Shown: positions 9,153 to 29,666, counted from the stretch's first letter. The stretch: DNA of 37,207 nt from Acidimicrobiales bacterium (GCA_035303865.1 DATGRC010000027.1:1-37207), one strand, 5' to 3'. The notes: generated by a model not told the origin, from the letters alone. Numbers and translations are program-made.

Positions 9153-9680
9153 ATGAGCGAGGGTCGCCACGTCGTGCTGCTCGGGCTGATGGGCGGTGGG
9201 AAGACGTCGGTGGGGCGGCGGGTGGCGGCCCGCCTGGGGCGCCCGCTCCTCGACGGCGACGCCCTGCTCGAGGCCCGCACCGGCCGCACCGCGGCCGAGA
9301 TCGCCGACTCGGAGGGGCTCGACCGGCTCCACGGGCTGGAGGCCGAGATCGCGATGGAGGCGCTGGCCTCGACCGAGCCGGCGGTCGTCAGCCCGGCGGC
9401 GTCGGTGGTCGAGGTCGACGCGGTCCGCGCCGCCCTGGCCGGCCACGCCGTCGTGTGGCTGGCGGCGTCAGCCGCGCACCACGCTCGGGCAGCGGTGGGG
9501 AAGGACCACCGGCCGCTGCTCGACGGCGACCCGCTCGCCCTCTTCGAGCACCAGCTCGCCGTGCGGGGCCCGCTCAGGCCATCGGTGGCCGAGCTCGTCA
9601 TCGACGTGGAGACCGCCACGAAGGACGAGCAGGCCGACGCCGTGGTGGCGCTCCTCCAGCGCCACCACCCCGAGCTCTGA
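9153..9680 (+). CDS. Shikimate kinase-like P-loop kinase (divergent)
   Basis: Walker A GLMGGGKTSVG followed by LLDGDALLEARTGRTAAEI, which resembles the D-x-D ... G-x-x-I-x-E-I pattern of shikimate kinases. I prefer ATG 9153 to the track GTG 9132, because 9132 lies inside the repeat hairpin. The usual GGG lid motif reads SPAASVV. Confidence 0.6.
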   Translation: MSEGRHVVLLGLMGGGKTSVGRRVAARLGRPLLDGDALLEARTGRTAAEIADSEGLDRLHGLEAEIAMEALASTEPAVVSPAASVVEVDAVRAALAGHAVVWLAASAAHHARAAVGKDHRPLLDGDPLALFEHQLAVRGPLRPSVAELVIDVETATKDEQADAVVALLQRHHPEL

Positions 9681-9710
9681 CCGCGACCGCGGGCCGCCGC
9701 CGCGGTCAGA
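9674..9710. terminator. Hairpin shared by convergent genes, with both stop codons inside the stem
   Basis: CTCTGACCGCG (9674-9684) pairs perfectly with CGCGGTCAGAG (9700-9710) across a 15-nt GC-rich loop. The TGA of the kinase-like gene and the TCA (minus-strand TGA) of the Nudix gene sit in opposite arms. No U tract. Confidence 0.4.
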
Positions 9711-10590
9711 GGTGGTCGAGCTGGCCGCGGGCGAGCGTGCCGGTGACGAGCCCGAGGAGCTGGCGCAGCATCGCCGCGGTGGCACCCCAGAGGGTGTCGC
9801 CCTCGAGCTCGAAGAAGAAGATGGGCCGGTCCTCGGCCCACGGGAGCTGCCAGCGCTCCTCCCGGTAGATGGCCGGGTCGAGCAGCTCGGCCACCGGGAC
9901 GTGGAGGACGGCGGACACCTCGGCCGGGTTGGGACGGGTGTCGGGCCGGCCGGGGAGGGCCCCGACGTAGGGGACGATGAACGAGCGGCTGGTGACGGTG
10001 GCCAGGTGGTCGAGCTCGCCGATCTGCTCCACGTCGTCGGGCGGCAGGCCGATCTCCTCCTGCGCCTCCCGCAGCGCCGTCTCCCAGAGCGTCTCGCCGG
10101 GGTCCTGACCGCCGCCGGGGAAGCTGACCTCACCGGAGTGGGAGCGCAGGTTCCAGGTGCGCCGGGTGAGCACGACCCACAGCTCGCCGTCGTCCTCGTA
10201 GAGCGGGGCCAGCACGGCCGACGCCCGGTCGATGCCCGGCAGCGTCTCGCGCTCGGACGGCAGCGCCGGGCCGGCCCGGCCGAGGGCCTCGCGCACGTCG
10301 TCGAGGCGGGGGCGCCGGGCGGCAGCGGGCAGGTCGGCCCACGGGGCGGGCCGCCCCGCCCGGGCGGTCAGCGGTCGGGGGATGATCTGGTCGCCCCCTC
10401 GCCCCGACGGGACCGGGACCGGTGGCGGCGGGAACGGCTCGCCGGGCCGCGGGAAGCCGGGCATGCCGCGCCGGGCGGCCTCCCGGGCCGACAGGATCGG
10501 GGGGTCGTAGCCGTCGATCGGGTCGGCGACGGCTTCCTCGAGGTCGTCCTCGTGGGCGTCGGTGGCGGGCTGGCCCTCAGGCGTCGGCAT
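9706..10590 (-). CDS. Nudix hydrolase (CoA pyrophosphatase-like) with a Pro-rich N-terminal extension
   Basis: 294 aa. Nudix box GGGQDPGETLWETALREAQEEIG. GC3 stays high through the roughly 100-aa Pro/Arg/Asp-rich N-terminus. The ATG lies 14 nt upstream of the stop of the preceding small ORF. Confidence 0.8.
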   Translation of the reverse strand: MPTPEGQPATDAHEDDLEEAVADPIDGYDPPILSAREAARRGMPGFPRPGEPFPPPPVPVPSGRGGDQIIPRPLTARAGRPAPWADLPAAARRPRLDDVREALGRAGPALPSERETLPGIDRASAVLAPLYEDDGELWVVLTRRTWNLRSHSGEVSFPGGGQDPGETLWETALREAQEEIGLPPDDVEQIGELDHLATVTSRSFIVPYVGALPGRPDTRPNPAEVSAVLHVPVAELLDPAIYREERWQLPWAEDRPIFFFELEGDTLWGATAAMLRQLLGLVTGTLARGQLDHL

Positions 10591-10741
10591 CGGCCCGCTG
10601 CTCGGCGGCCAGCGACTCCAGCAGGTCCCGCAGTCCGTGGGTCTTCAGGTTGCTCATCACCCGGCCCGGCGGCGTCTCGCCCCGCTCCCACTCCATCCAG
10701 TCGGCGAGGAGCTTGCTGGGGTCAGGAGGCGGTCGATCCAT
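10577..10741 (-). CDS. Small hypothetical protein (54 aa)
   Basis: MDRPPPDPSKLLADWMEWERGETPPGRVMSNLKTHGLRDLLESLAAEQRADADA. This is the C-terminal part of a longer track ORF. It has an ATG start and high GC3, and it overlaps the Nudix start. Confidence 0.45.
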   Translation of the reverse strand: MDRPPPDPSKLLADWMEWERGETPPGRVMSNLKTHGLRDLLESLAAEQRADADA

Positions 10742-10831
10742 GCCCGGGAGGCTACCGGCGCCGGAGCAGAGCCAGGCGGGGCGGGGCCGGTCGGCTCGCC
10801 GATCGCGCCGCCGTTCCGGCACCCTGGAGGG

Positions 10832-11431
10832 GTGACCCGACGACTCGTCCTCGCCTCTGCCTCCCCGGCCCGTCGCCGCGTGCTGCAAGAGGCTGGCTTC
10901 GCCCCCGAGGTGGTGGTGAGCGGCGCGCCCGAGGACGGGGTGACCGGGTCCACCGCGGAGGTGGCGGAGGCGCTGGCCGAGCGCAAGGCCACGGCGGTGG
11001 CCGCGACCCTCGACGGGGAGCCGGCGATCGTCGTCGGCTGCGACTCGGTCCTCGACGTCGACGGCGAGACCCGCGGCAAGCCGGCGTCGCTCGACCAGGC
11101 CCGGGCCTGGTGGGCGTCGGTGGCCGGACGCTCCGCCGTGCTGCACACCGGGCACTGCGTGATCGACACCAAGACGGGCCGCCAGGCCAGCGGGGTGGCG
11201 AGCACCACCGTCCACTACGGCGAGCCGACCCCGGAGGAGATCGAGGCCTACCTGGCCACCGGGGAGCCCCTCGCCGTGGCCGGCGCCTTCACGATCGACG
11301 GCTACGCCGCCCCGTTCGTGACCGGCATCGAGGGGGACCACGGCAACGTGCTCGGCCTGTCGCTGCCGCTCCTGCGCACGCTCCTCGCCGACATCGACGT
11401 GGCGATCACCGACCTGTGGGTGCCCCGGTGA
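10832..11431 (+). CDS. maf: Maf-like nucleoside triphosphate pyrophosphatase
   Basis: 199 aa from GTG 10832. VTRRLVLASASPARRRVLQEAGF..., CDSVLDVDG, GAFTIDGYAAPFV. The stop overlaps the dus start (GTGA). Confidence 0.85.
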   Translation: MTRRLVLASASPARRRVLQEAGFAPEVVVSGAPEDGVTGSTAEVAEALAERKATAVAATLDGEPAIVVGCDSVLDVDGETRGKPASLDQARAWWASVAGRSAVLHTGHCVIDTKTGRQASGVASTTVHYGEPTPEEIEAYLATGEPLAVAGAFTIDGYAAPFVTGIEGDHGNVLGLSLPLLRTLLADIDVAITDLWVPR

Positions 11432-12594
11432 CCGACCTCCGCGCCCGCGCAGCGCCCGCCGAGCAGCCGGCGACGCCGGGGCCGCTGCGCATCGGGCCGC
11501 TGTCGGTCGACCCGCCGGTGGTCCTCGCGCCGATGGCGGGCGTCACCGACGGGCCGTTCCGGGGCCTGTGCTCGCGCTTCGGCGCCGGGCTGTACGTGTC
11601 GGAGATGATCACGGCCCGGGCGGTGGTGGAGCGCAACGAGAAGACGCTCGGGATGCTGCGCTTCGACGGCTCGGAGACCACCCGCAGCGTGCAGCTGTAC
11701 GGCACCGCCCCGACCACGATGGGTGAGGCGGTGCGGTTCCTCGTGGGCGAGGTGGGCGTCGACCACATCGACATGAACTTCGGCTGCCCGGTCCCGAAGG
11801 TGACCCGCAAGGGGGGTGGGGCGGCGCTGCCGGTGCGCCGGGTGCTGCTGCGCGAGATCGTGCGCGCGGCGGTGCGGGCGGCCGGCGACGTGCCGGTGAC
11901 GGTCAAGTTCCGGATGGGGGTGGACGACTTGGTCCTCACCTACCTGGAGACGGGCCGCATCGCCGCCGACGAGGGGGCGGCGGCCATCGCGCTGCACGCC
12001 CGCACGGCCGAGCAGCTCTACAGCGGGCAGGCCCGCTGGGACGCCATCGCGGCCCTGAAGGCCGAGGTCACCGGCATCCCGGTGCTCGGCAACGGCGACG
12101 TCTGGGAGGCGTCGGACGCCCTCGCCATGGTGGCCGAGACGGGGTGCGACGGCGTGGTGATCGGCCGGGGGTGCCTCGGCCGGCCGTGGCTGTTCCGGGA
12201 CCTGGCCGACGCGTTCGCGGGCCGACCGGTGCAGCCCCCGCCGCGGCTCGGCGAGGTGGCGGCGGTCATGCGCGAGCACGCCGAGCGCCTCGTGGACTGG
12301 TACGGCGAGACGAGCGGCATGAAGGCGTTCCGCAAGCACGCCGGCTGGTACTTCACCGGCTACCCGGTGGGCAGCGAGCTGCGTCGCCGGGGCTCGATGG
12401 TGTCGACCCTGGCCGACCTCGACGCCATCCTGGCCGAGCTCGACCCCGACGCCACGATCCGCGACAACGCCCTGCGCGCCCCCCGGGGCCACACCAACGG
12501 CCCCCGTCCCGTCCATCTCCCCGACGGGTGGCTCGCCCTCCGCGACGACCCCACCCCGCCCAAGGGCGCCGAGATCCTCGCCAGCGGCGGCTGA
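11428..12594 (+). CDS. dus: tRNA-dihydrouridine synthase
   Basis: 388 aa, the C-terminal portion of the artefactual 1132-aa track [28 protein letters not shown] (catalytic Cys), [13 protein letters not shown]. Confidence 0.9.
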
Positions 12595-18069: not shown

Positions 18070-19119
18070 TCAGGCGAGGCCGAGGTTGGGGACGGCGCCG
18101 ACGTCGAGGGGGTCGGGGCCGTGGAGGCGCCAGCGGTGCCAGCCGGCGGCGGCGACCATCGCCGCGTTGTCCGTGCACATCGCCCGGCTGGGCAGGAACG
18201 ACTGGAGGCCCTCGGCCTCGCAGCGCTCCACCAGGCGCTCGCGCAGGCGGGAGTTGGCGGCCACGCCGCCGCCGAGCGCGATGCCCGTGGCCCCCACGGC
18301 GCGCGCCGCGGCGAGGCCCTTGGCCAGGAGCGTGTCGACCACCGCCTCCTGGAACGAGGCGGCCACGTCGGCGGTGGCGACGTCGGGGTGCTTGCGGACG
18401 TGGTTGACCACGGCCGTCTTCAGCCCGCTGAAGCTGACGTCGAAGGTGCCGTCGCCCACCATCGGCCGGGGGAAGCGGATCGCCTCGCGGTCGCCCTCGG
18501 TGGCGAGCAGGTCGATGGCGGGCCCGCCCGGGTAGCCGAGGCCGAGGTACCGGGCCACCTTGTCGTAGGCCTCGCCGGCGGCGTCGTCGATCGTGGAGCC
18601 GAGGATCCGGTAGCGGTCGTGGTCCTCCATCAGGACGAACAGGGTGTGACCGCCCGACACGATCATCACGACGATCGGCAGCTCGACGTCGGGGGCCTCG
18701 AGGAGGGTGGCGTAGAGGTGGGCCTCGAGGTGGTTGACGGCCAGGAACGGCACGTCCCAGGACAGGGCGAGCGCCTTGGCGGCGGACACGCCCACGAGCA
18801 GGGCGCCCACGAGCCCGGGCCCGTAGGTGGCGGCCACGGCCTCGACGTCGGGGGGCCGCTCGGCGGTGGCGTGGTCCGACAGGCCGGCCTCCACGAAGGC
18901 CTGGGCGACGACCGGCACGAGCAGGTCGACGTGGGCCCGGCTGGCGATCTCGGGCACGACGCCGCCGTAGCGGGCGTGGAGGTCGACCTGGCTGCTGACC
19001 ACCGAGGACAGGATGCGGGTGCCGCCCTGCACGATGGCGGCCGCGGTCTCGTCGCAGGACGTCTCGATGCCCAGCACCCGGGCGGCGGCCAGCTCGGCGG
19101 GGACGTCGACGGCGGTCAC
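18070..19119 (-). CDS. tsaD: tRNA N6-adenosine threonylcarbamoyltransferase
   Basis: 349 aa from GTG 19119, which overlaps the rimI stop (GTGA). VLGIETSCDETAAAIV, AVNHLEAHLY, SGGHT. The 289-aa extension in the track ORF is rejected. Confidence 0.93.
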   Translation of the reverse strand: MTAVDVPAELAAARVLGIETSCDETAAAIVQGGTRILSSVVSSQVDLHARYGGVVPEIASRAHVDLLVPVVAQAFVEAGLSDHATAERPPDVEAVAATYGPGLVGALLVGVSAAKALALSWDVPFLAVNHLEAHLYATLLEAPDVELPIVVMIVSGGHTLFVLMEDHDRYRILGSTIDDAAGEAYDKVARYLGLGYPGGPAIDLLATEGDREAIRFPRPMVGDGTFDVSFSGLKTAVVNHVRKHPDVATADVAASFQEAVVDTLLAKGLAAARAVGATGIALGGGVAANSRLRERLVERCEAEGLQSFLPSRAMCTDNAAMVAAAGWHRWRLHGPDPLDVGAVPNLGLA

Positions 19120-19679
19120 CGGCGCTCCTCGATCGTGGTGGTGCCGGGCACGGCGCTGGCCAGCTCGTCGAGGCGGCGACCGTACTCGGGGGTGTCGATG
19201 TCGATGGCCCACATGATGAGCGCGTCCTCGCCGGTCTCCTGGTAGTACCCCTTGCGGACCCCGACCGGCGCGAACCCGAAGGCCCGGTAGAGGCGCTGGG
19301 CCGGGGCGTTGCCGACGCGCACCTCGAGGGTGAGGTTGCGGGCCCCGGCGTGGCGGGCCGCCGTGGCGAGGGCGTGGACGAGGCGGCGGCCGATGCGGTG
19401 GCCCTGCCAGGCGGGGGCGACGGCCACGTTGGTGATGTGCCCGTCCTCGGCGACGAGCATGAGCCCGGCGTAGCCGACCACGTGGGATCCGACTTTGGCG
19501 ACGTACCAGACCCGGGTGGGACCGGCGGAGAGCTCGCTCAGGAACAGGTTCAGGGACCAGGGGCGGGGGTGGACGACCTCCTCGATGCGCAGGACGGCGC
19601 GCAGGTGGCGGCGCCGCATCGGGGTGAGCACGACGTCGATCGGCTCGGCCGAGGAGGTGGCGGCTGCGGCGGCGGTCAC
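19116..19679 (-). CDS. rimI: Ribosomal-protein-alanine N-acetyltransferase (GNAT)
   Basis: 187 aa. NVAVAPAWQGHRIGRRLVHAL, LEVRVGNAPAQRLYRAFGF. GTG start overlaps the tsaB stop (GTGA). Confidence 0.85.
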   Translation of the reverse strand: MTAAAAATSSAEPIDVVLTPMRRRHLRAVLRIEEVVHPRPWSLNLFLSELSAGPTRVWYVAKVGSHVVGYAGLMLVAEDGHITNVAVAPAWQGHRIGRRLVHALATAARHAGARNLTLEVRVGNAPAQRLYRAFGFAPVGVRKGYYQETGEDALIMWAIDIDTPEYGRRLDELASAVPGTTTIEERR

Positions 19680-20377
19680 CGGGCGCCGTCCCTGGTGGTC
19701 CAGCTGATCTCGGCGTCGGGCTTGCGGAGGTAGAGGGGCGCCACGTCGCCGGGCCCGGTGAACTCCTCTCGCAGCGCCCGTGGGTGGGCGAGCTGCACGA
19801 GCGACCCGGCGCTCGGGTAGGCGATGCCCGGGTCGCCGAGCTCGACCTGGTCCAGGGGCTCGAAGACGTCGCGGTGCCGCAGGGCGCCGTCGCCGACGAG
19901 CAGGACGTCGTCGCGGCTGGCCGCCAGGTCGGAGGCGAGGTCGGCCGGGGTGGCCACCGCCGGCTCGTCCATGCGCTGCACGCCACCGGGCACCTGCCGG
20001 TAGGCGGCGTGGAACAGCTCGCCCCGGCCGCCGTCGATGGCGCAGACGATCCGGCGGGGCGAGTGGCGCAGCGGGAACGCGAGCAGGTCGAGGCTCGACA
20101 CCCCGATCATGGGGAGGCGCCGGGCGTGGGACAGGGCCTTCGCCGCCGCCACGCCCACCCGGAGCCCGGTGAACATGCCGGGGCCGACGTCGACGGCGAT
20201 GGCGCCGACGTCGGCGAGGTCGATGCGGGCCTGGCGGCAGAGGAAGTCGATGGCCGGGGCGAGGGTCTCGGCGTGGCGCCGGCCGCGGGCGACGTGGGTG
20301 GACGCGAGCACGCCTTCGTGGCCGCCGATCGCGCAGCCGACCTGCGCGGTGGAGGTGGTGATCCCGAGGATCAGCAC
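19676..20377 (-). CDS. tsaB: tRNA threonylcarbamoyladenosine biosynthesis protein TsaB
   Basis: 233 aa from GTG 20377. VLILGITTSTAQVGCAIGG..., GPGMFTGLRVGVAAAKAL. Overlaps the tsaE stop by 7 nt. Confidence 0.88.
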   Translation of the reverse strand: MLILGITTSTAQVGCAIGGHEGVLASTHVARGRRHAETLAPAIDFLCRQARIDLADVGAIAVDVGPGMFTGLRVGVAAAKALSHARRLPMIGVSSLDLLAFPLRHSPRRIVCAIDGGRGELFHAAYRQVPGGVQRMDEPAVATPADLASDLAASRDDVLLVGDGALRHRDVFEPLDQVELGDPGIAYPSAGSLVQLAHPRALREEFTGPGDVAPLYLRKPDAEISWTTRDGAR

Positions 20378-22023: not shown

Positions 22024-23420
22024 GGCCCGGCCTCCGGCTCGCGACCCACCTCGGCCAGCGCGTCGGGGAGCAGGGCGAGGAGGTCGGTGGCCACGAGGCC
22101 CCGGTCCGGGCCGAGGGCGGCGGCCCGGCCGTGCAGCCAGGCGCCGACCGCGGCGGCGTCGAACGGCGGGACCCCCTGGGCGATGAGCGCGGCGATGACG
22201 CCGCTCAGCACGTCGCCGGTGCCGGCGGTGGCCAAGCGCTGGTCGCCGGCGGCGACGACCCGGGCCGCGCCCTGCGGGTGCGCCACGACGGTGGTGGGGC
22301 CCTTGAGGAGGACGACCGCGCCGGCGTCGGCGGCCAGCTGGCGAGCGGCGGCGATGCGGTCGGGTCCGGGACGGTCGCCGGCGAGCCGGGCGAACTCGCC
22401 GTCGTGGGGTGTGAGCACGGTGGCGGCGACCCGGTCCCGAACGACGTCGAGGTCCCGGCCGACCGCGGCGAGCCCGTCCCCGTCGACCACGGCGGCCACG
22501 GGGGCGGAGCCGAGGAGCAGGCGCACCCCGCCGCGGGTGGCCAGCGAGGTGCCGAGCCCGGGGCCGACGACGAGGGCCCGGAAGCGGTGCAGCTCGCGGC
22601 TGACGGCTTCGGCCCAGCCGTCGTCGGGGAGCCGGAGGCCGACGGCCTCGGTGGGCCGCCGGGGGTCGTCATCGAGGCCCGGGGTGGCGAGGCGCACCAT
22701 CCCGGCCCCGGCCCGCTGGGCGGCGGCGGCGGTGAGGTGGGCGGCTCCGGTCATCCCCGGCGAGCCGGCCACGACCATGACGGCGCTGTCCCACTTGTGG
22801 GCGGTGGCCCGGCGCCGGGGGAGCGCCGCCGCGACGTCGGCCCCCTCGACGAGGTGGGTGGTGGCGCGGGAGACGTCGAGCCCGATGTCGGCGAGGGCGA
22901 CGGCGCCGGCGAGGCTGCGGCCCGGCTCGAGGAGGAGGCCGGGCTTGAGGGCGGCGAAGGTGATCGTGCGGTCGGCGGCGAGGACCCGCTCGGCGGCCTC
23001 GCCGGTGAGGCCCGACACGCCGCTCGGGATGTCGACGGCGAGCACCGGCGTGCCGGGCGCGACGAGCGGCGCACGGTACTCGCCCCGGAAGCCGGTGCCG
23101 TACGCGGCGTCGATGACGAGGTCGGCGGGGGGCAGCTGGTACGGGGCGGCGTGGGCCTCGATGACCTGCACCCGGACGCCGCGTCGGCGCAGGCGCCGGG
23201 CCGCGGACCGCCCGTCGGCGCCGTTGTTGCCCTTGCCGGCGAGCACGACGGCGCGGCGCCCGTACCCCCCGCCGAGGAGGCGGAGGGCTTCGCGGGCCAC
23301 CGCGGCGCCGGCCCGCTCGATGAGCTCGACGACCGGCTCGGGGGCGGCCGCGTCGACCGCGGCCATCTCGGCCGGAGTGAGGACCGGGATCACGGGGCCA
23401 GCGTACGACCCCGCCGCCAC
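22020..23420 (-). CDS. nnr: Bifunctional NAD(P)H-hydrate epimerase / ADP-dependent dehydratase
   Basis: 466 aa. N-terminal YjeF_N part (VLAGKGNNGADG) and C-terminal carbohydrate-kinase part (HKWDSAVMVVAGSPGMTGAAHL, GTGDVLSGVIAAL). Start uncertain; GTG 23393 is an alternative. Confidence 0.88.
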   Translation of the reverse strand: MAAGSYAGPVIPVLTPAEMAAVDAAAPEPVVELIERAGAAVAREALRLLGGGYGRRAVVLAGKGNNGADGRSAARRLRRRGVRVQVIEAHAAPYQLPPADLVIDAAYGTGFRGEYRAPLVAPGTPVLAVDIPSGVSGLTGEAAERVLAADRTITFAALKPGLLLEPGRSLAGAVALADIGLDVSRATTHLVEGADVAAALPRRRATAHKWDSAVMVVAGSPGMTGAAHLTAAAAQRAGAGMVRLATPGLDDDPRRPTEAVGLRLPDDGWAEAVSRELHRFRALVVGPGLGTSLATRGGVRLLLGSAPVAAVVDGDGLAAVGRDLDVVRDRVAATVLTPHDGEFARLAGDRPGPDRIAAARQLAADAGAVVLLKGPTTVVAHPQGAARVVAAGDQRLATAGTGDVLSGVIAALIAQGVPPFDAAAVGAWLHGRAAALGPDRGLVATDLLALLPDALAEVGREPEAGP

Positions 23421-23471
23421 CGGTCCCGACGACCGGGACCGTCGCTCGCGGCGCCCCGGCGACGGCCGCCG

Positions 23472-24377
23472 TCAGGCTGGGTCACGAACCTCGAGCCGCT
23501 CGAGGCGGTACTCCCACGGGGTGTCGCTGGCGGTGGCGCTGCAGGTGAGGGCCACGGCGGCACCCCGGTGGCGGGACACGGTGGCGAGCAGGGCGCCGGC
23601 TCCGTAGCCGAGCTCGACGGTGATCTGGTCGCCGTCGCGGGTCCAGGCCCGGGGCTCGAGGAGGGCGAGGCGGCGCTCGCCGAGCTCGAGCCGGGCGAGC
23701 ACCTCGGCGGCCTGGACGAGCGGCGGGTAGCAGCTGCGGCCCCGGTAGTGGTCGAGGGCGAGGAACCCGTCGGCGTGGTCGCGCAGGATGGCGACGGCCC
23801 GCTCCGGCGGGACCCGGCCGAAGTAGACGCCGGAGGGGAGGCAGACGACGTTGGCGGCGAAGCGGTCGCCGCCGACGTGGGAGGACTCCCACACGTCCTG
23901 GCCGGCGGCCCGCAGGACCCGGACCACGGGCCGGCCGAAGTCGGCGCAGCACGGGTCGTGGCGGCCGTTGGTGCACACGAGGTCGAGGCGCTCGACCCGC
24001 TCGCCCACCCCGGGCGGCGCGTCGGCGTCGAGCGCGCCGAGGGGCAGGTGGAGCAGCGCCTCGGGCTCGCGGATCCGCAGCCGCTCGGCCCAGCTGACCT
24101 GACGGTCGGAGCGGACGAGGAAGACCTGGTGGGCCCCGGTGGTGGGGGCCATCGAGCGACGCACGAGCACCACCCTCGCTCCGTGCCGGGCGGCGAGGCG
24201 ATGGACGCCCTCGGCCACGGCCTCGGGGATGCGGCTCTCCCGCAGCGCGTCGCTCCCCCAGGAGCCGGGCTGCTCCACGAGCAGCCACCGCCGCACCCGG
24301 GAGGCGGTGCCGAGGACCAGCTCGCCGCGCCGGCGCGAGTCGAGGGCGCAGCCGGGCGCCCCGGGCTCACGAGCCAT
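23472..24377 (-). CDS. Sucrase/ferredoxin-like (Suc_Fer-like) thioredoxin-fold protein
   Basis: 301 aa. WLLVEQPGSWG, LVCTNGRHDPCCADFGRP, SSHVGGDRFAANVV. The ATG overlaps the upstream cupin gene stop by 11 nt. Confidence 0.8.
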   Translation of the reverse strand: MAREPGAPGCALDSRRRGELVLGTASRVRRWLLVEQPGSWGSDALRESRIPEAVAEGVHRLAARHGARVVLVRRSMAPTTGAHQVFLVRSDRQVSWAERLRIREPEALLHLPLGALDADAPPGVGERVERLDLVCTNGRHDPCCADFGRPVVRVLRAAGQDVWESSHVGGDRFAANVVCLPSGVYFGRVPPERAVAILRDHADGFLALDHYRGRSCYPPLVQAAEVLARLELGERRLALLEPRAWTRDGDQITVELGYGAGALLATVSRHRGAAVALTCSATASDTPWEYRLERLEVRDPA

Positions 24378-25584
24378 CGGTGCGGTGGAGCACGCCCTCG
24401 CGCAGGAGGCGGCGGACGAAGACGGCTCGGCTGCCCTCGTCGAGCAGGTCCGAGAGGGCGCCGACGGGCAGCGCGGGCCCGTCCAGGACGCGGCGCAGCG
24501 CCGGCTCCAGGGCCGCTGGCAGGTCGATGCGGCGGTCGCTCAGCTCGAGCCCGATGCGGGACCCGTCGTCGCGGTCCGGGCGGGGGTGCAGCCGCCACGC
24601 CACGCCCGGTCGGCGGGCGACGACGGTGGCGTCGTCCACGGCACGGTCGGCGACCAGCTCGAGGAGCTGGCCCCGGCGCCGGGGGCTGCGCCGAGCCGAC
24701 TCCCGCCACACGAGCTCGTCGGCCACCTCCTCGGCGGGGAGGTCCTCGAGCCAGCGGAGCAGGTCGGCGACGACGTCCTTCACGACCCGCTGCGCGGTGT
24801 CGTCGTCGGCCGCGAACCGCACCGGCAGGGACCGCCGGAACGCGGGGTCCTCGGCCGTGCGGTCCACGATCTGGCGGAGCAGGTCGTGGCGGGTGCGGTT
24901 GAGGATCCCGATGGTCAGGTGGAGCGACGCCTCGGCCTGGGCGGCGGCCGAGTGCACGAAGCCGCGGGGCAGGTAGAGCGCGTCGCCGGGCTCGAGCACC
25001 CCGTCGAAGAGGACCGGCTGGGCGCCGGCCGCCTCGTGGTCGGAGCGGTGCCGCTCGAGGGGCGCCTCGACGAGCGGCTCGCGCACGGTCCAGTGCTTCG
25101 TGCCCTCGACCTGGAGGACGAGCACGTCGTGGGTGTCATGGTGCGGGGCGAACCCGGCGGCGCCGGCGGGGGTCAGGTAGGCGTTGGCCTGCACCGGGTG
25201 GCCGAGCTCGTGCTCGAGCTCGGCGCAGAAGTCCCCGAGCGGGGGCCACCAGCGGTGCAGCGAGTTGAGGACGATCGTGGCGCCGTCGGCGAAGGCGGCG
25301 AGGGTGCGGGCCGGGTCGACGAGGTCGTCGATCCAGGTGCTGCCGGTGCGGGCGCGGCGGGTGAACGACGACGGGGGAAGGACCTCGCCGTCGCGCGCCA
25401 GCCGCACCGCGGGTCGGCGCAGCCCCCCACCGGTGAGCTGGGCGTCGACGTCGGCCACCGACAGGAGGTCGGTGAACGGACCCGAGCGCCACCGGTGGGG
25501 AGCTCGGCCGAAGGCTTCGGCCAGGAAGGCCCCGGCGTCGCCGACGCAGCGCCCGAGGGCGCTGGTCGGCGGTCGCGCGGTCAC
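24367..25584 (-). CDS. JmjC / cupin-4 Fe(II)-2OG oxygenase (ribosomal-oxygenase YcfD/RoxA-like)
   Basis: 405 aa. FAPHHDTHDVLVLQVEGTKHWTV provides the HxD of the facial triad, and GDALYLPRGFVHSA provides the distal His. GTG start lies 13 nt after the micro-ORF stop; exact start uncertain. Confidence 0.8.
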   Translation of the reverse strand: MTARPPTSALGRCVGDAGAFLAEAFGRAPHRWRSGPFTDLLSVADVDAQLTGGGLRRPAVRLARDGEVLPPSSFTRRARTGSTWIDDLVDPARTLAAFADGATIVLNSLHRWWPPLGDFCAELEHELGHPVQANAYLTPAGAAGFAPHHDTHDVLVLQVEGTKHWTVREPLVEAPLERHRSDHEAAGAQPVLFDGVLEPGDALYLPRGFVHSAAAQAEASLHLTIGILNRTRHDLLRQIVDRTAEDPAFRRSLPVRFAADDDTAQRVVKDVVADLLRWLEDLPAEEVADELVWRESARRSPRRRGQLLELVADRAVDDATVVARRPGVAWRLHPRPDRDDGSRIGLELSDRRIDLPAALEPALRRVLDGPALPVGALSDLLDEGSRAVFVRRLLREGVLHRTDGS

Positions 25585-25597
25585 GGGGGGACGCCGG

Positions 25598-25783
25598 TCA
25601 GGCGTCGGTGCCGTCGGCGTCGCCGCCGTCGGTACCGTCGTCGTCGGCGTCCGTGCCGTCGTCGTCGGCGTCCGTGCCGTCGGCGTCGCCGCCGTCGGTG
25701 GCGTCGTCGTCGCCCTGGGCCTTCGGCGAGGTGATCAGCTCGGTGCGGATGTCCTCATCGGTGAGGTTGGTGACCACGGTCAT
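25598..25783 (-). CDS. Asp-rich repeat micro-protein (61 aa), hypothetical
   Basis: MTVVTNLTDEDIRTELITSPKAQGDDDATDGGDADGTDADDDGTDADDDGTDGGDADGTDA. ATG 25783 has AAAGG 8 nt upstream. GC3 is nearly saturated and in frame. This is the C-terminal part of track ORF 25598-26047, whose Arg-rich upstream part is rejected. Confidence 0.6.
   Translation of the reverse strand: MTVVTNLTDEDIRTELITSPKAQGDDDATDGGDADGTDADDDGTDADDDGTDGGDADGTDA
25613..25699 (-). repeat. In-frame 21-nt (7-codon) repeats inside the micro-ORF, in X-Y-Y-X arrangement
   Basis: Plus strand X = GTCGGCGTCGCCGCCGTCGGT at 25613-25633 and 25679-25699. Y = GTCGTCGTCGGCGTCCGTGCC at 25637-25657 and 25658-25678. All copies are perfect. Confidence 0.85.
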
Positions 25784-25887
25784 CGGCTGTGCCTTTCTGT
25801 CTCTGGGGCAGCCCCGGGAACCTGCCCACCGGGCCCAAGGTCTACACGGCGCTCCGGCCCCGTGCTCGGGCCCCGGCGACCGGTCGC

Positions 25888-26253
25888 TCAGAGGGCGACG
25901 GCGACGGCCTCGGCCAGCAGCGGCGTGTGGGTGAGCGTGAGCAGCCAGCGCTGGATCCCCCGCTCGTCGGCGGCGGCGAGCGCGGCGCCGGTGAGCCGCA
26001 GGGACGGCTGGCCGCTGCCGGCTCGCACCACCTCGATGTCGTGCCACCGGCAGGCGCCGAGGCCGAGCCCCATCGCCTTCAGCACCGCCTCCTTGGCCGC
26101 GAAGCGCGCCGCGTACCGCTCGGCCGGGTCGCCGCGCCGCTCGCAGTACGCCCGCTCCTCCGGGGTGAAGAGCCGGTGGGCGAGGGTGGGGGTCCGCTCC
26201 AGCGAGGTCCGCATCCGCGGCACCTCGCAGAGGTCGACCCCGATCCCGATCAC
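25888..26253 (-). CDS. acpS: Holo-[acyl-carrier-protein] synthase
   Basis: 121 aa from GTG 26253, which overlaps the glmS stop (GTGA). VIGIGVDLCEV, RFAAKEAVLKAMG. Confidence 0.9.
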   Translation of the reverse strand: MIGIGVDLCEVPRMRTSLERTPTLAHRLFTPEERAYCERRGDPAERYAARFAAKEAVLKAMGLGLGACRWHDIEVVRAGSGQPSLRLTGAALAAADERGIQRWLLTLTHTPLLAEAVAVAL

Positions 26254-29200
26254 GAGCGGAACCGGTCGGCCAGCTCTCGGATGGGCTCGACGAGCAGGTC
26301 GACGGCCGGGGTCTCGGCGAGCAGGTCCTCCCGGAAGGTCGGCTCGGTCTCGAGCACGGCGTCGCGCAGGGCCGACCAGCGGTTGCGGTAGCCCTGCAGG
26401 ACGCCGCGGGCGGCGGCCACGGAGAGGCGGTCCTGGAAGCGGACGTGCAGCAGCGTGATGCCGGTGGCCTTGTCGTCCTTGGTCTCGGGGACGATGACGA
26501 CGGTGCGGCCGTCCACGCGGCCCCGGGTCACGAAGACCTGGCGCTCGACGGCCACCGTGTGCTTGGTGCCCCGCAGGCGGCCGCCCCGCTCGGTGCGCGA
26601 CGGGATGTCCAGCGCGATGCCGCCCCGGTCGACGACGTGGACGGGCACCTCGCCGTCCTCGGCCTCGCCGTCGAGCTCGTAGCGGATCCAGCCGGTGACC
26701 TCCGCGATCGCCGGGTCGAGGTCGGCCAGGGTGCGCAGCACCCGGTAGGAGAGGCGGTCGCGGGCGGTGCCGGCGGCGAGGACGGCCTGCACGAGGCGGG
26801 GCTGGAGCAGCGTCTCGTCGCTGCGGGAGATGCCGACCGTGACCGTCTTGGCCTGGTGCTTGATGGCGTCGACGGGCCGGGTGAGCTCCTCGATGCCCTG
26901 GGTGAGCGCGGCCGTGAGGTCCTCGATGACCACGGCCGGGGTGCCGATGCGACCCATCTCCGCCTGGTAGGCGTCGAGCGAGGCGATCCCGAGCGCGTAG
27001 CGGAAGGCACCGGCCAGGCGCACGGCCGAGCTGGCCTCGAGGTTGCCGTCGTAAGCGCCGGCGCGCAGCCCGTCGAAGAACCGGGTGGCGGCGGCGGTGA
27101 GCGCGGGTCGGAGCTGCTGGAGCAGCGCGTCCCCGTCGGCGGCGGCCGACTCCCCCACCGCCTCCTCGATGGCGGCCCTGGCCTCGCGCAGCGGGAGGGC
27201 CTGCGCGTCGATGGCGAGCGCCGCCTCGTAGCCGAAGAGGTGCCCCGCCACCGCGGTGAGCACGAAGCCCAGCTGCGGGTGGCACTGCGGCACGGAGATC
27301 ACCGAGACGGCGGCGCTGTAGCGGGCCTGGTCGTCGCTGGCGATGACGATCGGGGTGGCCTTGTGGGCCCGGTAGATCGCCACCTCCTTGGCCACGTCGT
27401 CCGCGGTGGAGCCCTCGAGCCCCGCGGCGCACACGAGGATCATCGGCTCGCAGGACAGGTCGATGTGCTTCTTGTCCTCGGTGGCGTCGCAGGCGATCGA
27501 CCGGTAGCAGAGCTCGCTGAGCTTGATGCGCAGCTCGGCGGCGGCGATCCGGTTCACGCCGTTGCCGACGATGGCCCAGTACCGCTTGGCCGGCGCGAGC
27601 TCGCGAGCGGCGGCGGCGACCGCGTCTCGGCGGCGGAGCGTCTCCTCCATCTTCTCGGGGAGGCCGCGCAGCTCGGCGAGCAGCGCCGGGTCGACCGAGC
27701 CGCCCACCTCCTCGGCGATGGCCCAGGCGAGGAGGAAGCCGGCGGCGATCTGGGAGTAGAACGCCTTGGTGGAGGCCACGCTCATCTCCACGTCGCGCCC
27801 GTCGGAGGTGTAGAGGACGCCGTCGGACTTGTCCGTGAGGTCCGAGCCCCGGCGGTTGACGATCGACACGACGGTGGCGCCTCGCCCGCGGGCGAGGTCG
27901 ACGGTGCGGTTGGTGTCGGTGGTGGTGCCCGACTGGCTGATGGCCACGACGAGGGTGTCGGACATGTCGGGGCGCAGCCCGAAGCCGGACAGCTCGGTGG
28001 CGGGCAGGGCCTCGACCCGCAGGCAGCCCTCCGGGGCGGCGGCCTCGAGGGCGGCGGCGAGGCTCTGGCCGGCCACGTGGGCGGTGCCCTGGCCGATGAC
28101 CTGGACCCGGGTGATGCGGCCCTCCCGGAACCCGGCCCGCACCTCGGGGGTGAGGACGTCGGGTCCGAGCTCGACGGCGAGGCGCCCGTCGCGCTCGACG
28201 AGCTTGCCCCGCAGCGTCTTGCGGAAGCTGTTGGGGGCCTCCGAGATCTCCTTGAGCAGGTAGTGGGGGTGGTCGCCGCGGTCGATGTCGCGGGTGGTGA
28301 CCTCGGCCCGGTGGAGGTCGGCCTCGGTGACGGGGAGGTCGGTGCCGTCGTAGGCCTGGCGGGTGATCCCCTCGAGCGTGCCGGGGCGGGTGCCGTCGAG
28401 GACGACGATCTGGCCGCGGCTGGCGGTGGGGTTCTCCGGGTTGGCCGGGGTCTCGCCGTCGAGGCGCAGGTAGGTGTCGGTCAGCTCGACGACCCCGTAG
28501 GGCTCGGAGGCCACGATGTAGCAGCCGTCGGCCAGGCCGACGTAGAGCGCCTGGCCGGAGCCCCGCAGCGCGAGGAGGAGCTGGTCGGGGTGGGTGGCGG
28601 CGCTGGCGCCGATGGCCACCGACCCCTCGAAGGTGGCGACGGTGTCCCGGAACGCATCGACGAGCGCGGCGCCCTCGTCCAGGCGCCGCGAGATGAGGGT
28701 GGGGATGACCTTCGCGTCGGTGGTGATCTCGGGGGCGACGCGCAGCGCCTCGGCGGCCTTGAGGTCGGCGAAGTTGTCCACGTCGCCGTTCAGGACGGCG
28801 GACACGTAGGGCCCGTCGACGCGGTCGACCTCGTAGCTGTCGACGGGGTGCGCGTTGGGCTGGGAGATGATGCCGATGCTCGCCCAGCGGGTGTGGCCGA
28901 GGACCGTGGCGCGGGCCCGCTCGCCTCGCAGGGCGAGGTGGAGCAGCTCGTCGCCCACGACCTCGGCCCGGATGGCGGCGGTGTTGTCGCCGAGCTCGCC
29001 GATCTCGGCGGCCGCCTTGTAGACGAAGCAGAGGTGGCCCTCGGGGGTGCGCACCGTCCCGCTGCGGCACAGCGGATCGCCCGTCCGGGCCTCGAGGAGC
29101 TGCGCCACGGCGGGGTCGGCGAGATCGAGGTCGTGGTCCTGGACGAGCACCTCGATGCCGGCCGAGTCGCGCCCCCGCACCTCGAGGCGGTCGATCGCCG

Positions 29201-29666
29201 CCAGGGCCTGCTGGATGGAGGTGCCGATCTCGATGGCCGACCAGCCGGCGCCGGCTCCCACGAGGTCGCGCACCGCGCTCGCGGTGGGGACGCGGTCGCG
29301 CTCGACGGCCCAGCGGGCGTCCTTGAGCCGCACGATGGCGGCGTTCAGGTCCTCGAGCTCGCGCCCGGCGTCCGCGTCGTCGTCAAGCGCCGCCTCGACC
29401 TCGTCCACCCACGCGGCCACGGCGCCGCAGGTGGCGGTGATGCGGGTGCCGAGCGCGCTGTCGCGCACGAGGGCGGCCACCCCGTCGGTGGTCCGCAGGA
29501 GCCGATCGAGCTCTTCGAGGATCTGGGCGGCGGCCGTCGCGGCGGGGCGCGGCGGCTGCCCGCTGGCGATGGCGGCCTGGACGGCGTCGAGGCGATCGAG
29601 GATCTCAGGGGCGGGGATGGCGCGTCGGGCGCCGGGCCCCCGCTGGAGGGCGATGATGCCGCACAC
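26250..29666 (-). CDS. glmS: Glutamine--fructose-6-phosphate aminotransferase homologue, atypically long (1138 aa)
   Basis: GTG-TGC start gives Cys1 (MCGIIAL) with GGAAGGA SD. Canonical motifs are present: RGRDSAG (res 164-170), GHTRWAS...NAHP, LNGDVDN, TDAKVI, HYLLKEISEAPNS, ISQSGTTTDT, ASTKAF, and AKTVTV (res 939-944). Large extra segments separate them (see finding). It occupies the syntenic glmS position between glmM and acpS. Confidence 0.8.
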   Translation of the reverse strand: MCGIIALQRGPGARRAIPAPEILDRLDAVQAAIASGQPPRPAATAAAQILEELDRLLRTTDGVAALVRDSALGTRITATCGAVAAWVDEVEAALDDDADAGRELEDLNAAIVRLKDARWAVERDRVPTASAVRDLVGAGAGWSAIEIGTSIQQALAAIDRLEVRGRDSAGIEVLVQDHDLDLADPAVAQLLEARTGDPLCRSGTVRTPEGHLCFVYKAAAEIGELGDNTAAIRAEVVGDELLHLALRGERARATVLGHTRWASIGIISQPNAHPVDSYEVDRVDGPYVSAVLNGDVDNFADLKAAEALRVAPEITTDAKVIPTLISRRLDEGAALVDAFRDTVATFEGSVAIGASAATHPDQLLLALRGSGQALYVGLADGCYIVASEPYGVVELTDTYLRLDGETPANPENPTASRGQIVVLDGTRPGTLEGITRQAYDGTDLPVTEADLHRAEVTTRDIDRGDHPHYLLKEISEAPNSFRKTLRGKLVERDGRLAVELGPDVLTPEVRAGFREGRITRVQVIGQGTAHVAGQSLAAALEAAAPEGCLRVEALPATELSGFGLRPDMSDTLVVAISQSGTTTDTNRTVDLARGRGATVVSIVNRRGSDLTDKSDGVLYTSDGRDVEMSVASTKAFYSQIAAGFLLAWAIAEEVGGSVDPALLAELRGLPEKMEETLRRRDAVAAAARELAPAKRYWAIVGNGVNRIAAAELRIKLSELCYRSIACDATEDKKHIDLSCEPMILVCAAGLEGSTADDVAKEVAIYRAHKATPIVIASDDQARYSAAVSVISVPQCHPQLGFVLTAVAGHLFGYEAALAIDAQALPLREARAAIEEAVGESAAADGDALLQQLRPALTAAATRFFDGLRAGAYDGNLEASSAVRLAGAFRYALGIASLDAYQAEMGRIGTPAVVIEDLTAALTQGIEELTRPVDAIKHQAKTVTVGISRSDETLLQPRLVQAVLAAGTARDRLSYRVLRTLADLDPAIAEVTGWIRYELDGEAEDGEVPVHVVDRGGIALDIPSRTERGGRLRGTKHTVAVERQVFVTRGRVDGRTVVIVPETKDDKATGITLLHVRFQDRLSVAAARGVLQGYRNRWSALRDAVLETEPTFREDLLAETPAVDLLVEPIRELADRFRS

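Follow-up and report, generated by a model that had tools for sequence, protein, structure and literature searches.

A 37,207-nt stretch of DNA from an Acidimicrobiales bacterium (GCA_035303865.1, DATGRC010000027.1:1-37207; the whole of this stretch is hereafter called the window) carries a compact group of three genes: a micro open reading frame (micro-ORF) for a highly acidic repeat peptide, a JmjC-type Fe(II)/2-oxoglutarate (2OG) oxygenase and a Suc_Fer-like protein. Our main finding is that these genes belong to a conserved cassette, in which the acidic micro-ORF directly precedes the oxygenase at every locus where the upstream DNA could be read. An earlier note on this DNA had regarded the trio as one functional unit and had suggested that the peptide is modified by the oxygenase. 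The first of these ideas is borne out by the locus counts given below. The second, in the form of a peptide serving as the dedicated substrate of the co-encoded oxygenase, is the model that we favor, and we give it about an even chance of being right.

The cassette was surveyed by scanning GTDB (one genome per species) with an alignment of the oxygenase. More than 580 stretches encode a relative; we examined the best 80 of them with 6-kb flanks, their oxygenases being 41–63% identical to that of the window. Carriers were found among Acidimicrobiales, Actinomycetes (including Gordonia tangerina, Cellulomonas chitinilytica, Leifsonia, Mycobacterium and Jatrophihabitans), Thermoleophilia/Solirubrobacterales, Nitriliruptoraceae and two Myxococcota (Sandaracinus). 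Five loci (L019, L023, L043, L059 and L077) have no upstream sequence and were left out of the upstream count. In all 75 loci with usable upstream DNA, an acidic micro-ORF lies on the same strand directly upstream of the oxygenase; this includes L034 and L067, in which manual checking traced its apparent absence to the choice of frame in one case and to N-masking in the other. The Suc_Fer-like gene directly follows the oxygenase in 69–70 of the 80 loci. All-against-all clustering of the flanking ORFs yielded no other family in more than 19 of the 80 loci, and those that did recur are unrelated enzymes reflecting local synteny. The earlier note had itself proposed such a survey and had counted homologous loci devoid of an upstream acidic micro-ORF as evidence against its reading; no such locus turned up among the 75.

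Comparison of sequences indicates that the micro-ORF is a translated coding gene under selection. Its N-terminus reads MTVVTNLTDEDIRTELITSPKA, and its tail is composed of Q and otherwise only of D, G, T and A. A GAAAGG element sits 9–14 nt 5' of the ATG, and the G+C fraction at third codon positions (0.95) is similar to that of the neighboring genes. In the closest relative (L081, with a 91% identical oxygenase) the micro-ORF has been called as a gene in the metagenome annotation, and the two copies differ by seven synonymous (third-position) and two non-synonymous substitutions. A search of 5.8 billion proteins identified 62 small homologues of 54–107 aa, all but one shorter than 75 aa. In these, an N-terminal ...L-T-D-E-D-I-R-T-E... 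is followed by a linker that varies and then by acidic repeats, and the ending ...GDADGTDA hardly changes. When 1.84 billion representative proteins were searched with a profile, 176 clusters came up at E ≤1e-3. Nearly all of these are proteins of 50–100 aa matched end to end, the few long matches being frameshifted read-throughs into the oxygenase or one unrelated repeat protein. One database protein (P0122) has the sequence of the window peptide with a single 7-aa unit left out, a change of copy number that keeps the frame. Neither Pfam nor NCBIfam has a model matching the window peptide or the peptides of eight clades.

Could such an ORF nevertheless be a chance open frame in G+C-rich repetitive DNA? 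Both strands of this genome do contain many spurious long ORFs, and the region is indeed a 21-nt tandem repeat (period 21, 5.0 copies, positions 25602–25714 according to Tandem Repeats Finder). However, the start, the Shine-Dalgarno (SD) element, the motif and the frame are conserved in all 75 loci, which represent different classes and unrelated repeat DNA. Moreover, a six-frame control over 870 kb of the loci, looking for the motif followed by an acidic low-complexity tail, gave 58 hits, all 58 directly upstream of an oxygenase; under this strict definition, no micro-ORF was found anywhere else in the six frames of the 870 kb. Together with the 7:2 ratio of synonymous to non-synonymous differences and the 176 clusters of stand-alone proteins, this makes a chance origin practically negligible. 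The earlier view of the micro-ORF as real, conserved and tied to the oxygenase thus holds, on account of the 75 loci, the pattern of substitutions and some 60 homologues.

The features of the cassette are collected in Table 1. The spacing of 13 nt between the micro-ORF stop and the oxygenase GTG, the 11-nt overlap of the oxygenase with the Suc_Fer-like gene, the coordinates of the trio and the hairpin beyond it had all been described in the earlier note, and a re-reading of the minus strand recovered every one of them.

Table 1. The three-gene cassette of the window and the elements that border it
Feature	Position	Strand	Details and basis
Three-gene cassette	23472..25783	(-)	Micro-ORF -> oxygenase -> Suc_Fer-like gene, ~2.3 kb; minus-strand reading of 23300-26100 and ORF listing
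5' region between acpS and micro-ORF	25784..25887	(-)	SD-like GAAAGG at 25797-25792; block in common with L081
Micro-ORF, first cassette gene	25598..25783	(-)	61 aa, net charge -20; ATG 25783, stop TGA 25600-25598
Conserved motif LTDEDIRT, codons 7-14	25742..25765	(-)	Family alignment
Acidic repeat tail QGDDDATDGGDADGTDADDDGTDADDDGTDGGDADGTDA, codons 23-61	25601..25717	(-)	7-aa (21-nt) units DxDGTDx
JmjC Fe(II)/2OG oxygenase, ribosomal-oxygenase type	24367..25584	(-)	405 aa, GTG start 25584; PF08007
Suc_Fer-like protein	23472..24377	(-)	301 aa, ATG 24377; PF06999
Hairpin CGGTCCCG-ACGAC-CGGGACCG	23421..23441	(-)	8-bp G+C-rich stem, no T-run, 3' of cassette

Signals for expression are conserved as well. 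An SD-like element is present 4–18 nt before the micro-ORF start in 56 of 60 loci, and in 55 of 63 loci the micro-ORF stop either lies no more than 30 nt from the oxygenase start or overlaps it. Because this distance is short and the GTG of the window oxygenase has no SD of its own, translation of the oxygenase is probably coupled to that of the peptide. Farther upstream, the window and L081 share a conserved block, ...GTGTAGACC.TGGGCCCGGTGGGCAGG.TCCCGGGGCTGCCCCAGA..CAGAAAGGCA... (in short, GTGTAGACC.TGGGCCCGGTGGGCAGG.TCCC). It differs from the promoter-like pair CTGTTT-N17-18-GGTTAGCGT found about 40–50 nt before the micro-ORF start in many other Acidimicrobiales loci (L001–L031), which can also be written as CCCTGTTT - 17-18 nt - GGTTAGCGT and has a -10 element of the TAnnnT type. 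Scans of the window returned nothing for the sigma-70 consensus and no Rfam element, and no terminator-like site was detected on the coding strand between the micro-ORF and the oxygenase. The sole terminator-like hit of the scan, at 25775–25791 on the plus strand, spans the start codon of the micro-ORF (its stem is CACGGTC/GGCTGTG, with CCTTTCTGTC after it); since 0.1 such hits are expected per region, it is probably a chance match.

The repeat DNA also affects how these genes appear in databases. Several entries join the acidic peptide to the oxygenase (P0047, P0419 and P0369; compare L003 and L053), either in frame after ...ADSDA or via an R-rich stretch in the wrong frame. These joined entries probably arose from single-base errors in long-read assemblies, and they illustrate how prone to frameshifts the repeat region is. 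A second group of oxygenase entries (P0080, P0081, P0063, P0071, P0084, P0096, P0118, P0054 and P0085) begins with T/P-rich sequence such as MTPPTPRRTSTARTTPTASTPTP, which on reading the DNA is the micro-ORF repeat in another frame, so that over-extension of the oxygenase start hides the micro-ORF. In other words, gene callers often miss the micro-ORF, or else overrun it by placing the start of the oxygenase too far upstream and reading it in a wrong frame, a point of practical relevance for annotation.

At the level of sequence, the peptides combine one short conserved motif with a tail that differs from clade to clade. Motif and composition were counted over 135 family members, presence or absence of residues over 119 full-length peptides. 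The motif L-[TS]-D-[ED]-D-I-x-T was found in 126 of the 135 peptides (per-position counts: L 109, D 120, D 118, I 114, T 123); alignment A5 shows L7 and I12 without variation and D9, D11 and T14 with a conservation of 90% or more. What follows the motif is made up of D (31%), G (18%), A (16%), T (11%), S (6%) and P (5%), with A or S as the final residue in 119 of the 135 peptides and no Cys anywhere in the family. Lengths range from 49 to 135 aa across clades, and the median full-length peptide has 20 Asp and a net charge of -21. Only A, D, G and T occur in every one of the 119 peptides: 78 lack His, 77 lack Lys, 91 lack Asn, and 5 are devoid of any R, K or H. The tail repeats are DADGTDGG and DADDDGT in the window's group, of the DPDxGP, TTDDAD and DTGDD types in other Acidimicrobiales lineages, DGGADG and GEGPADGGANPGGHDGGADGSA in Actinomycetes, DGGADGPAEPGPEGPA in Thermoleophilia and DADADAS in Sandaracinus, where the peptide reaches 131–135 aa. 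Asp makes up only about 20% of the tail in clades of the DGGADG type. The DADDDG units of the window match the D-x-D-x-D-G consensus of EF-hand-like Ca loops, but the DGGADG, TTDDAD, DADADAS and DPDxGP clades do not, and the match is therefore no family-wide feature. A conserved motif with clade-specific tails fits the pattern of a leader-like N-terminus and a core that had been read into the window peptide alone. The N-terminal motif is thus a candidate recognition (leader-like) element, unless it is itself a site of modification.

The same anatomy bears on the idea that the micro-ORF is a cis-acting regulatory leader, sensing Asp-tRNA, Mg2+ or similar through the reading of its many Asp codons or through an acidic nascent chain that destabilizes the ribosome, and thereby setting translation of the coupled genes, with a peptide that is itself functionless. 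The ORF is short and directly upstream, with at most 30 nt (or an overlap) between its stop and the oxygenase start, and the window oxygenase start lacks an SD; runs of D and E destabilize translating ribosomes and are used in this way by leaders of the mgtL type. Nevertheless, the amino acid motif is kept across phyla with mostly synonymous substitutions, which points to selection on the peptide sequence, and a length of 49–135 aa is far beyond that of attenuation leaders. There is neither room for nor any sign of a terminator or antiterminator before the oxygenase, and in the DGGADG-type clades Asp accounts for only about 20% of the tail. A purely regulatory leader thus appears very unlikely.

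The oxygenase matches JmjC_2/PF08007 with an E-value of 3.9e-28 in Pfam, and the partner matches Suc_Fer-like/PF06999 with an E-value of 3.6e-20, in agreement with the families to which both had earlier been assigned from the sequence alone; NCBIfam has no model matching either of them. The metal triad H148-x-D150...H211, the 2OG lysine K163 and residues N134, Y136 and T138 are invariant in alignments of 26 and 48 homologues. K163 aligns with the NO66 lysine, the GRK and SNVYLTP segments of NO66 are likewise aligned, and the HxD, G-x-K, N-x-Y-L-T-P and P-R-G-F-x-H segments all find counterparts in NO66/MINA53. The family profile is closest to NO66/MINA53 (E ~1e-28), followed by YxbC (8e-10) and YcfD (3e-8). 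For structure modeling we used P0047, the database protein in which peptide and oxygenase are joined in frame, with the oxygenase alignment as input to AlphaFold2. The resulting model has a predicted local distance difference test (pLDDT) value above 90 across the enzyme (residues 70–487). A Foldseek search with it retrieved full-length NO66 (E 4e-24, ~475 columns, template modeling (TM) score ~0.6), then MINA53, YcfD and YxbC, with FIH as a distant JmjC relative (E ~5e-9). According to the model, the enzyme is a complete ribosomal oxygenase (ROX), having the JmjC, helical dimerization and winged-helix domains of the three-domain architecture defined for this group (PMC6006756). The earlier comparison with YcfD therefore needs amending, as both the profile and Foldseek place the enzyme nearer to eukaryotic NO66/MINA53.

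The third protein of the cassette proved more unusual than its family name suggests. Its AlphaFold2 model (pLDDT 90.7) contains a central domain with C135-x8-C144 and H167-x3-D171, for which Foldseek finds the fold of the Aquifex thioredoxin-like [2Fe-2S] ferredoxin (TM to target 0.65–0.70, probability 1.00). No significant Foldseek match was obtained for the flanking N- and C-terminal domains, and a sequence search against PDB gave only insignificant matches. The CX8C spacing (C135...C144) is present in 70 of 70 partner sequences. Residues C10, C135, H140, D141, C143, C144, W163, H167, G169, G170, R172 and F173 are kept in at least 69 of 71, and C279 in 63 of 71. At position 171 we counted, over 69 sequences, D 63 times, C 5 times, E once and H not at all. 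Apd1 and Aim32, which share with the partner PF06999, the thioredoxin-like ferredoxin fold and CX8C, bind their [2Fe-2S] cluster through CX8C...HX3H, with bis-histidinyl ligation (PMC8482512). In the partner, by contrast, HX3H is replaced with H167-x3-D171, in which the last residue is never His, and the cluster is a prediction. By its Pfam match and modeled fold, the partner is an Apd1/Aim32-type thioredoxin-like ferredoxin, and by its ligand residues a variant of that family. It further differs from Apd1/Aim32 in the additional conserved C10, H140, C143 and C279 and in having further domains at both ends. Of the four residues, C10 belongs to the N-terminal segment and C279 to the C-terminal beta-domain; H140 and C143, too, are outside the CX8C...HX3D set. 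Their conservation is a hint of a second site for metal or a disulfide, or of an alternative ligation of the cluster.

How might these three products work together? Our answer is an inference as regards the substrate, the residue targeted, the part played by the ferredoxin and the function in the cell. The first gene encodes a small disordered polyanionic protein, composed of the motif and then the clade-specific D/G/A/T repeats. The oxygenase would recognize the N-terminal motif, possibly via its winged-helix domain acting like a recognition element (RRE) of peptides that are made by ribosomes and modified after translation (RiPPs), and would hydroxylate the peptide, the most plausible sites being several Asp, at their beta-carbon. 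FIH is a known JmjC hydroxylase that acts on Asp in ankyrin. Since A, D, G and T alone are universal in the peptides and Asp is a known JmjC target, Asp is the sole universal candidate with precedent; Lys, His, Asn and Asp have all been listed as residues hydroxylated by JmjC enzymes (PMC11575548). The ferredoxin-like partner might provide redox or iron support, with the catalytic iron kept at, or returned to, Fe(II). Alternatively, it might catalyze a second oxidative step, as in the SmaO/SmaX pair, where hydroxylation of Asp is followed by the action of a second iron enzyme (PMC12186529), or it might handle iron bound to the product. Since neither a protease nor an exporter goes with the cassette, the modified peptide is probably a small protein that functions intracellularly without being processed, and not a secreted natural product of the classical kind. 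There it could bind or buffer Fe or Ca, or serve as a switch responsive to O2, Fe or 2OG.

Several lines of evidence led us to put a dedicated substrate first. The adjacency of micro-ORF and oxygenase is strict and exclusive, the peptide has a motif followed by variable repeats, JmjC enzymes have precedents in RiPP pathways, and winged-helix domains fused to PF08007 have been flagged as RRE-like (PMC12710340). There are, on the other hand, a number of observations that this model does not readily accommodate. The conserved motif, with its D, I and T, might be no leader but the place where modification occurs. In the AlphaFold2 model of P0047, the tethered peptide has pLDDT 33–50 and no docked pose; the peptide being without alignment depth, this counts little for or against binding. 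Gross charge complementarity to a peptide of charge -21 is missing as well, the oxygenase clade having a median pI of ~5.9 and a net charge of about -9 and thus not being basic, a comparison that carries little information. The ROX enzymes known so far modify basic residues, not Asp, and do so in ribosomal proteins. A 2OG oxygenase needs no external electron donor, and standard chemistry therefore leaves the role of the ferredoxin unexplained. Finally, clustering of the flanks of the 80 loci revealed no conserved transporter, protease, exporter, receptor or separate RRE protein, and no IdeR-type iron box was found upstream, the best match having 7 mismatches over 19 positions.

Some of these observations suit an accessory role for the peptide better. 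It might be an inhibitor of the oxygenase, an adaptor, a chaperone for a basic target or a deliverer of Fe(II) or another metal, the real substrate being a different protein, for example a ribosomal one. The enzyme has the full ROX architecture and is nearest to NO66/MINA53, whose known substrates are ribosomal proteins (PMC6006756). His and Arg, the residues targeted by known ROX enzymes, are missing from many of the peptides, AlphaFold2 predicts no docking, and polyanionic peptides would be plausible binders of metal ions or basic proteins. Translational coupling, too, is as fitting for a stoichiometric partner as for a substrate. Yet a binder of the enzyme surface would be expected to be conserved, whereas the tails are hypervariable in type and in length (49–135 aa) and only the short motif is kept. 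In addition, no ribosomal-protein gene is linked to the cassette outside the window's lineage, and the cassette moves as a unit across genomic contexts and phyla. For these reasons we hold an accessory role to be somewhat unlikely, though deserving serious weight.

If the peptide is a substrate, its fate may be drawn in different ways. We likewise infer Asp hydroxylation and metal binding by the product. In its most elaborate form, the substrate model would define a class of polyanionic peptides with many beta-hydroxy-Asp (or aminomalonate) residues, an obligatory ferredoxin partner and an intracellular or secreted Fe(III)- or Ca(II)-binding product; taken as a whole, this version strikes us as unlikely. 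Still less probable, in our estimation, is an exported poly-(hydroxy)aspartate metallophore resembling a siderophore, whose leader would be cut and whose core would be exported by unlinked generic proteases and transporters. Such a product would fit the leader-like and core-like anatomy, beta-hydroxy-Asp is a known Fe(III) ligand in siderophores, and a [2Fe-2S]-type partner could act as a ferric reductase. RiPP metallophores do exist, as exemplified by bufferins, cited in PMC12710340. However, the absence of an IdeR iron box, a transporter or a protease accompanying the cassette weakens the siderophore-like version: in 80 loci no gene for a protease, transporter or receptor is conserved nearby, the peptides lack a signal peptide, no cleavage site is conserved where the motif gives way to the tail, and no IdeR-type box lies upstream. 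In the window, moreover, the cassette sits among housekeeping genes.

The genomic setting of the window cassette is itself exceptional. Upstream lies acpS, identified through the ACPS annotation of the syntenic gene in L081, and downstream are nnr (YjeF_N plus Carb_kinase) and alr, as assigned by Pfam; the trio thus occupies the place between acpS and nnr-alr described before. The window and L081 have in common the gene order rplM-rpsI-glmM-glmS-like-acpS, trio, nnr-alr-tsaE-tsaB-rimI-tsaD. In none of 80 other genomes, however, was acpS or nnr found within 6 kb of the cassette, in line with the previous impression that the trio is foreign to this stretch. That impression drew on gene order in Streptomyces and mycobacteria, whereas the organism is an actinomycete of the Acidimicrobiales type. 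Because only L081 shares the arrangement, the cassette is an autonomous unit that was inserted at the acpS/nnr housekeeping position in one lineage. The hairpin between the cassette and nnr is a possible weak terminator or boundary, going by its sequence; a consensus terminator scan of the window, in which a T-run is required, did not report it. Flanking ORF clusters 1, 3 and 4, considered as additional cassette genes, were ruled out as antisense shadow ORFs of the two enzymes. Outside Actinomycetota, complete cassettes are present in two Myxococcota, a 'Deltaproteobacteria' metagenome-assembled genome (MAG; L045) and a Sandaracinus MAG (L046). Their peptides are 131–135 aa long with DADADAS/DKDSDAG repeats and retain the motif as LTDDEIET, and their occurrence suggests horizontal transfer of the whole module.

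Upstream of acpS, the gene in the glmS position (26250–29666, minus strand) encodes 1138 aa, and the same 1138-aa gene is called in L081. Pfam assigns to it only GATase_6 (residues 254–388) and one SIS domain (520–647), leaving large regions of a protein about twice the canonical GlmS length without domain assignment. It should be kept in mind that the listing of longest ORFs over-extends genes in this G+C-rich window and that ORF length is not gene length: in the ORF at 9196–12594 (plus strand) Dus covers only residues 777–1075 of 1132 aa, and in that at 18070–19986 (minus strand) TsaD covers only residues 325–612 of 638 aa.

Should the peptide prove to be the substrate, the cassette would hold the first ROX-fold enzyme with a dedicated, co-encoded, non-ribosomal substrate, and hundreds of Actinomycetota species would possess a minimal two-enzyme system for peptide modification. 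Bacterial JmjC chemistry would be extended to the multi-site modification of an acidic repeat, and the bacterial branch of the poorly understood Suc_Fer-like (Apd1/Aim32) ferredoxins would gain a function. A new metal-binding or O2/iron-responsive small protein could also be revealed. The cassette is compact and widespread, and it is available in cultured strains such as Cellulomonas chitinilytica, Gordonia tangerina and Leifsonia sp.

Each part of the cassette has relatives in known systems, and it is useful to consider where the resemblance ends. Our literature search, which left most subscription-journal papers outside its reach, found papers on JmjC enzymes and RiPPs, on ROX and on Apd1/Aim32, none of which describes the cassette. 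The statement of the earlier note that no such system had been described therefore stands for the cassette as a whole, but not for the action of JmjC enzymes on co-encoded ribosomal peptides, of which there are two examples: BipG, an ornithine hydroxylase of the biphenomycin RiPP pathway (PMC12707348), and CzlI, a Phe hydroxylase of curacozole whose gene immediately adjoins the precursor gene (PMC11575548). By analogy, the cassette oxygenase may likewise act on the ribosomal peptide of its own cluster. The clusters of BipG and CzlI, however, include cyclodehydratases, oxidative enzymes that depend on multinuclear non-heme iron (MNIOs), radical S-adenosylmethionine enzymes, proteases and transporters, and one defined residue is targeted. 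The cassette has neither a protease nor an exporter linked to it; its oxygenase is the only enzyme recognizable as a modifier, and its peptide consists of a long acidic repeat. CzlI, furthermore, resembles YxbC (1VRB), whereas the cassette oxygenase is NO66-like with a winged helix. Set against the usual features of RiPP clusters, the sequences reveal a short precursor-like gene beside a putative modifying enzyme and a conserved N-terminus with a variable tail, the 80 loci contain no leader protease or exporter in the cluster, and the winged-helix domain is present in the oxygenase, for which the tethered-peptide model gave no confident contact.

NO66/RIOX1, MINA53/RIOX2 and YcfD/RoxA share with the cassette oxygenase PF08007, the three domains, the HxD...H triad and the 2OG Lys. 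The targets of these known ROX enzymes are His or Arg on ribosomal proteins, and no dedicated small substrate is encoded with them. The cassette oxygenase, in contrast, is always preceded by the polyanionic micro-ORF, whose product often lacks His, Arg and Lys, and then followed by the ferredoxin-like gene (69–70 of 80 loci), a context that suggests the co-encoded peptide as substrate instead of a ribosomal protein. Fe/2OG-dependent Asp hydroxylation in peptides is established for FIH, CinX (cinnamycin), SmaO/SmaX and the aKG-HExxH hydroxylases. With the exception of FIH, the distant JmjC relative, these Asp beta-hydroxylases differ in family from the cassette oxygenase, and they act on one or a few Asp sites, compared with 9–50 Asp in the cassette peptides. 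SmaO/SmaX converts Asp to hydroxy-Asp and on to aminomalonate with the help of a second iron enzyme, paralleling an oxygenase with a metal-cluster partner (PMC12186529), but SmaX is an HD-domain enzyme and the cassette partner a thioredoxin-like ferredoxin. Methanobactins and bufferins resemble the cassette in that a short ribosomal peptide with a proposed metal role is encoded beside an iron-dependent oxidative enzyme. There, the ligands are derived from Cys, the enzyme is an MNIO (DUF692) and signal peptides or export genes are present, whereas the cassette peptides are free of Cys, lack a signal peptide and have no export genes linked to them. Thus, while the component families are known, it is the combination of an acidic repeat peptide, an NO66-like ROX and a variant thioredoxin-like ferredoxin, with nothing else, that has no counterpart among the curated models and the papers searched.

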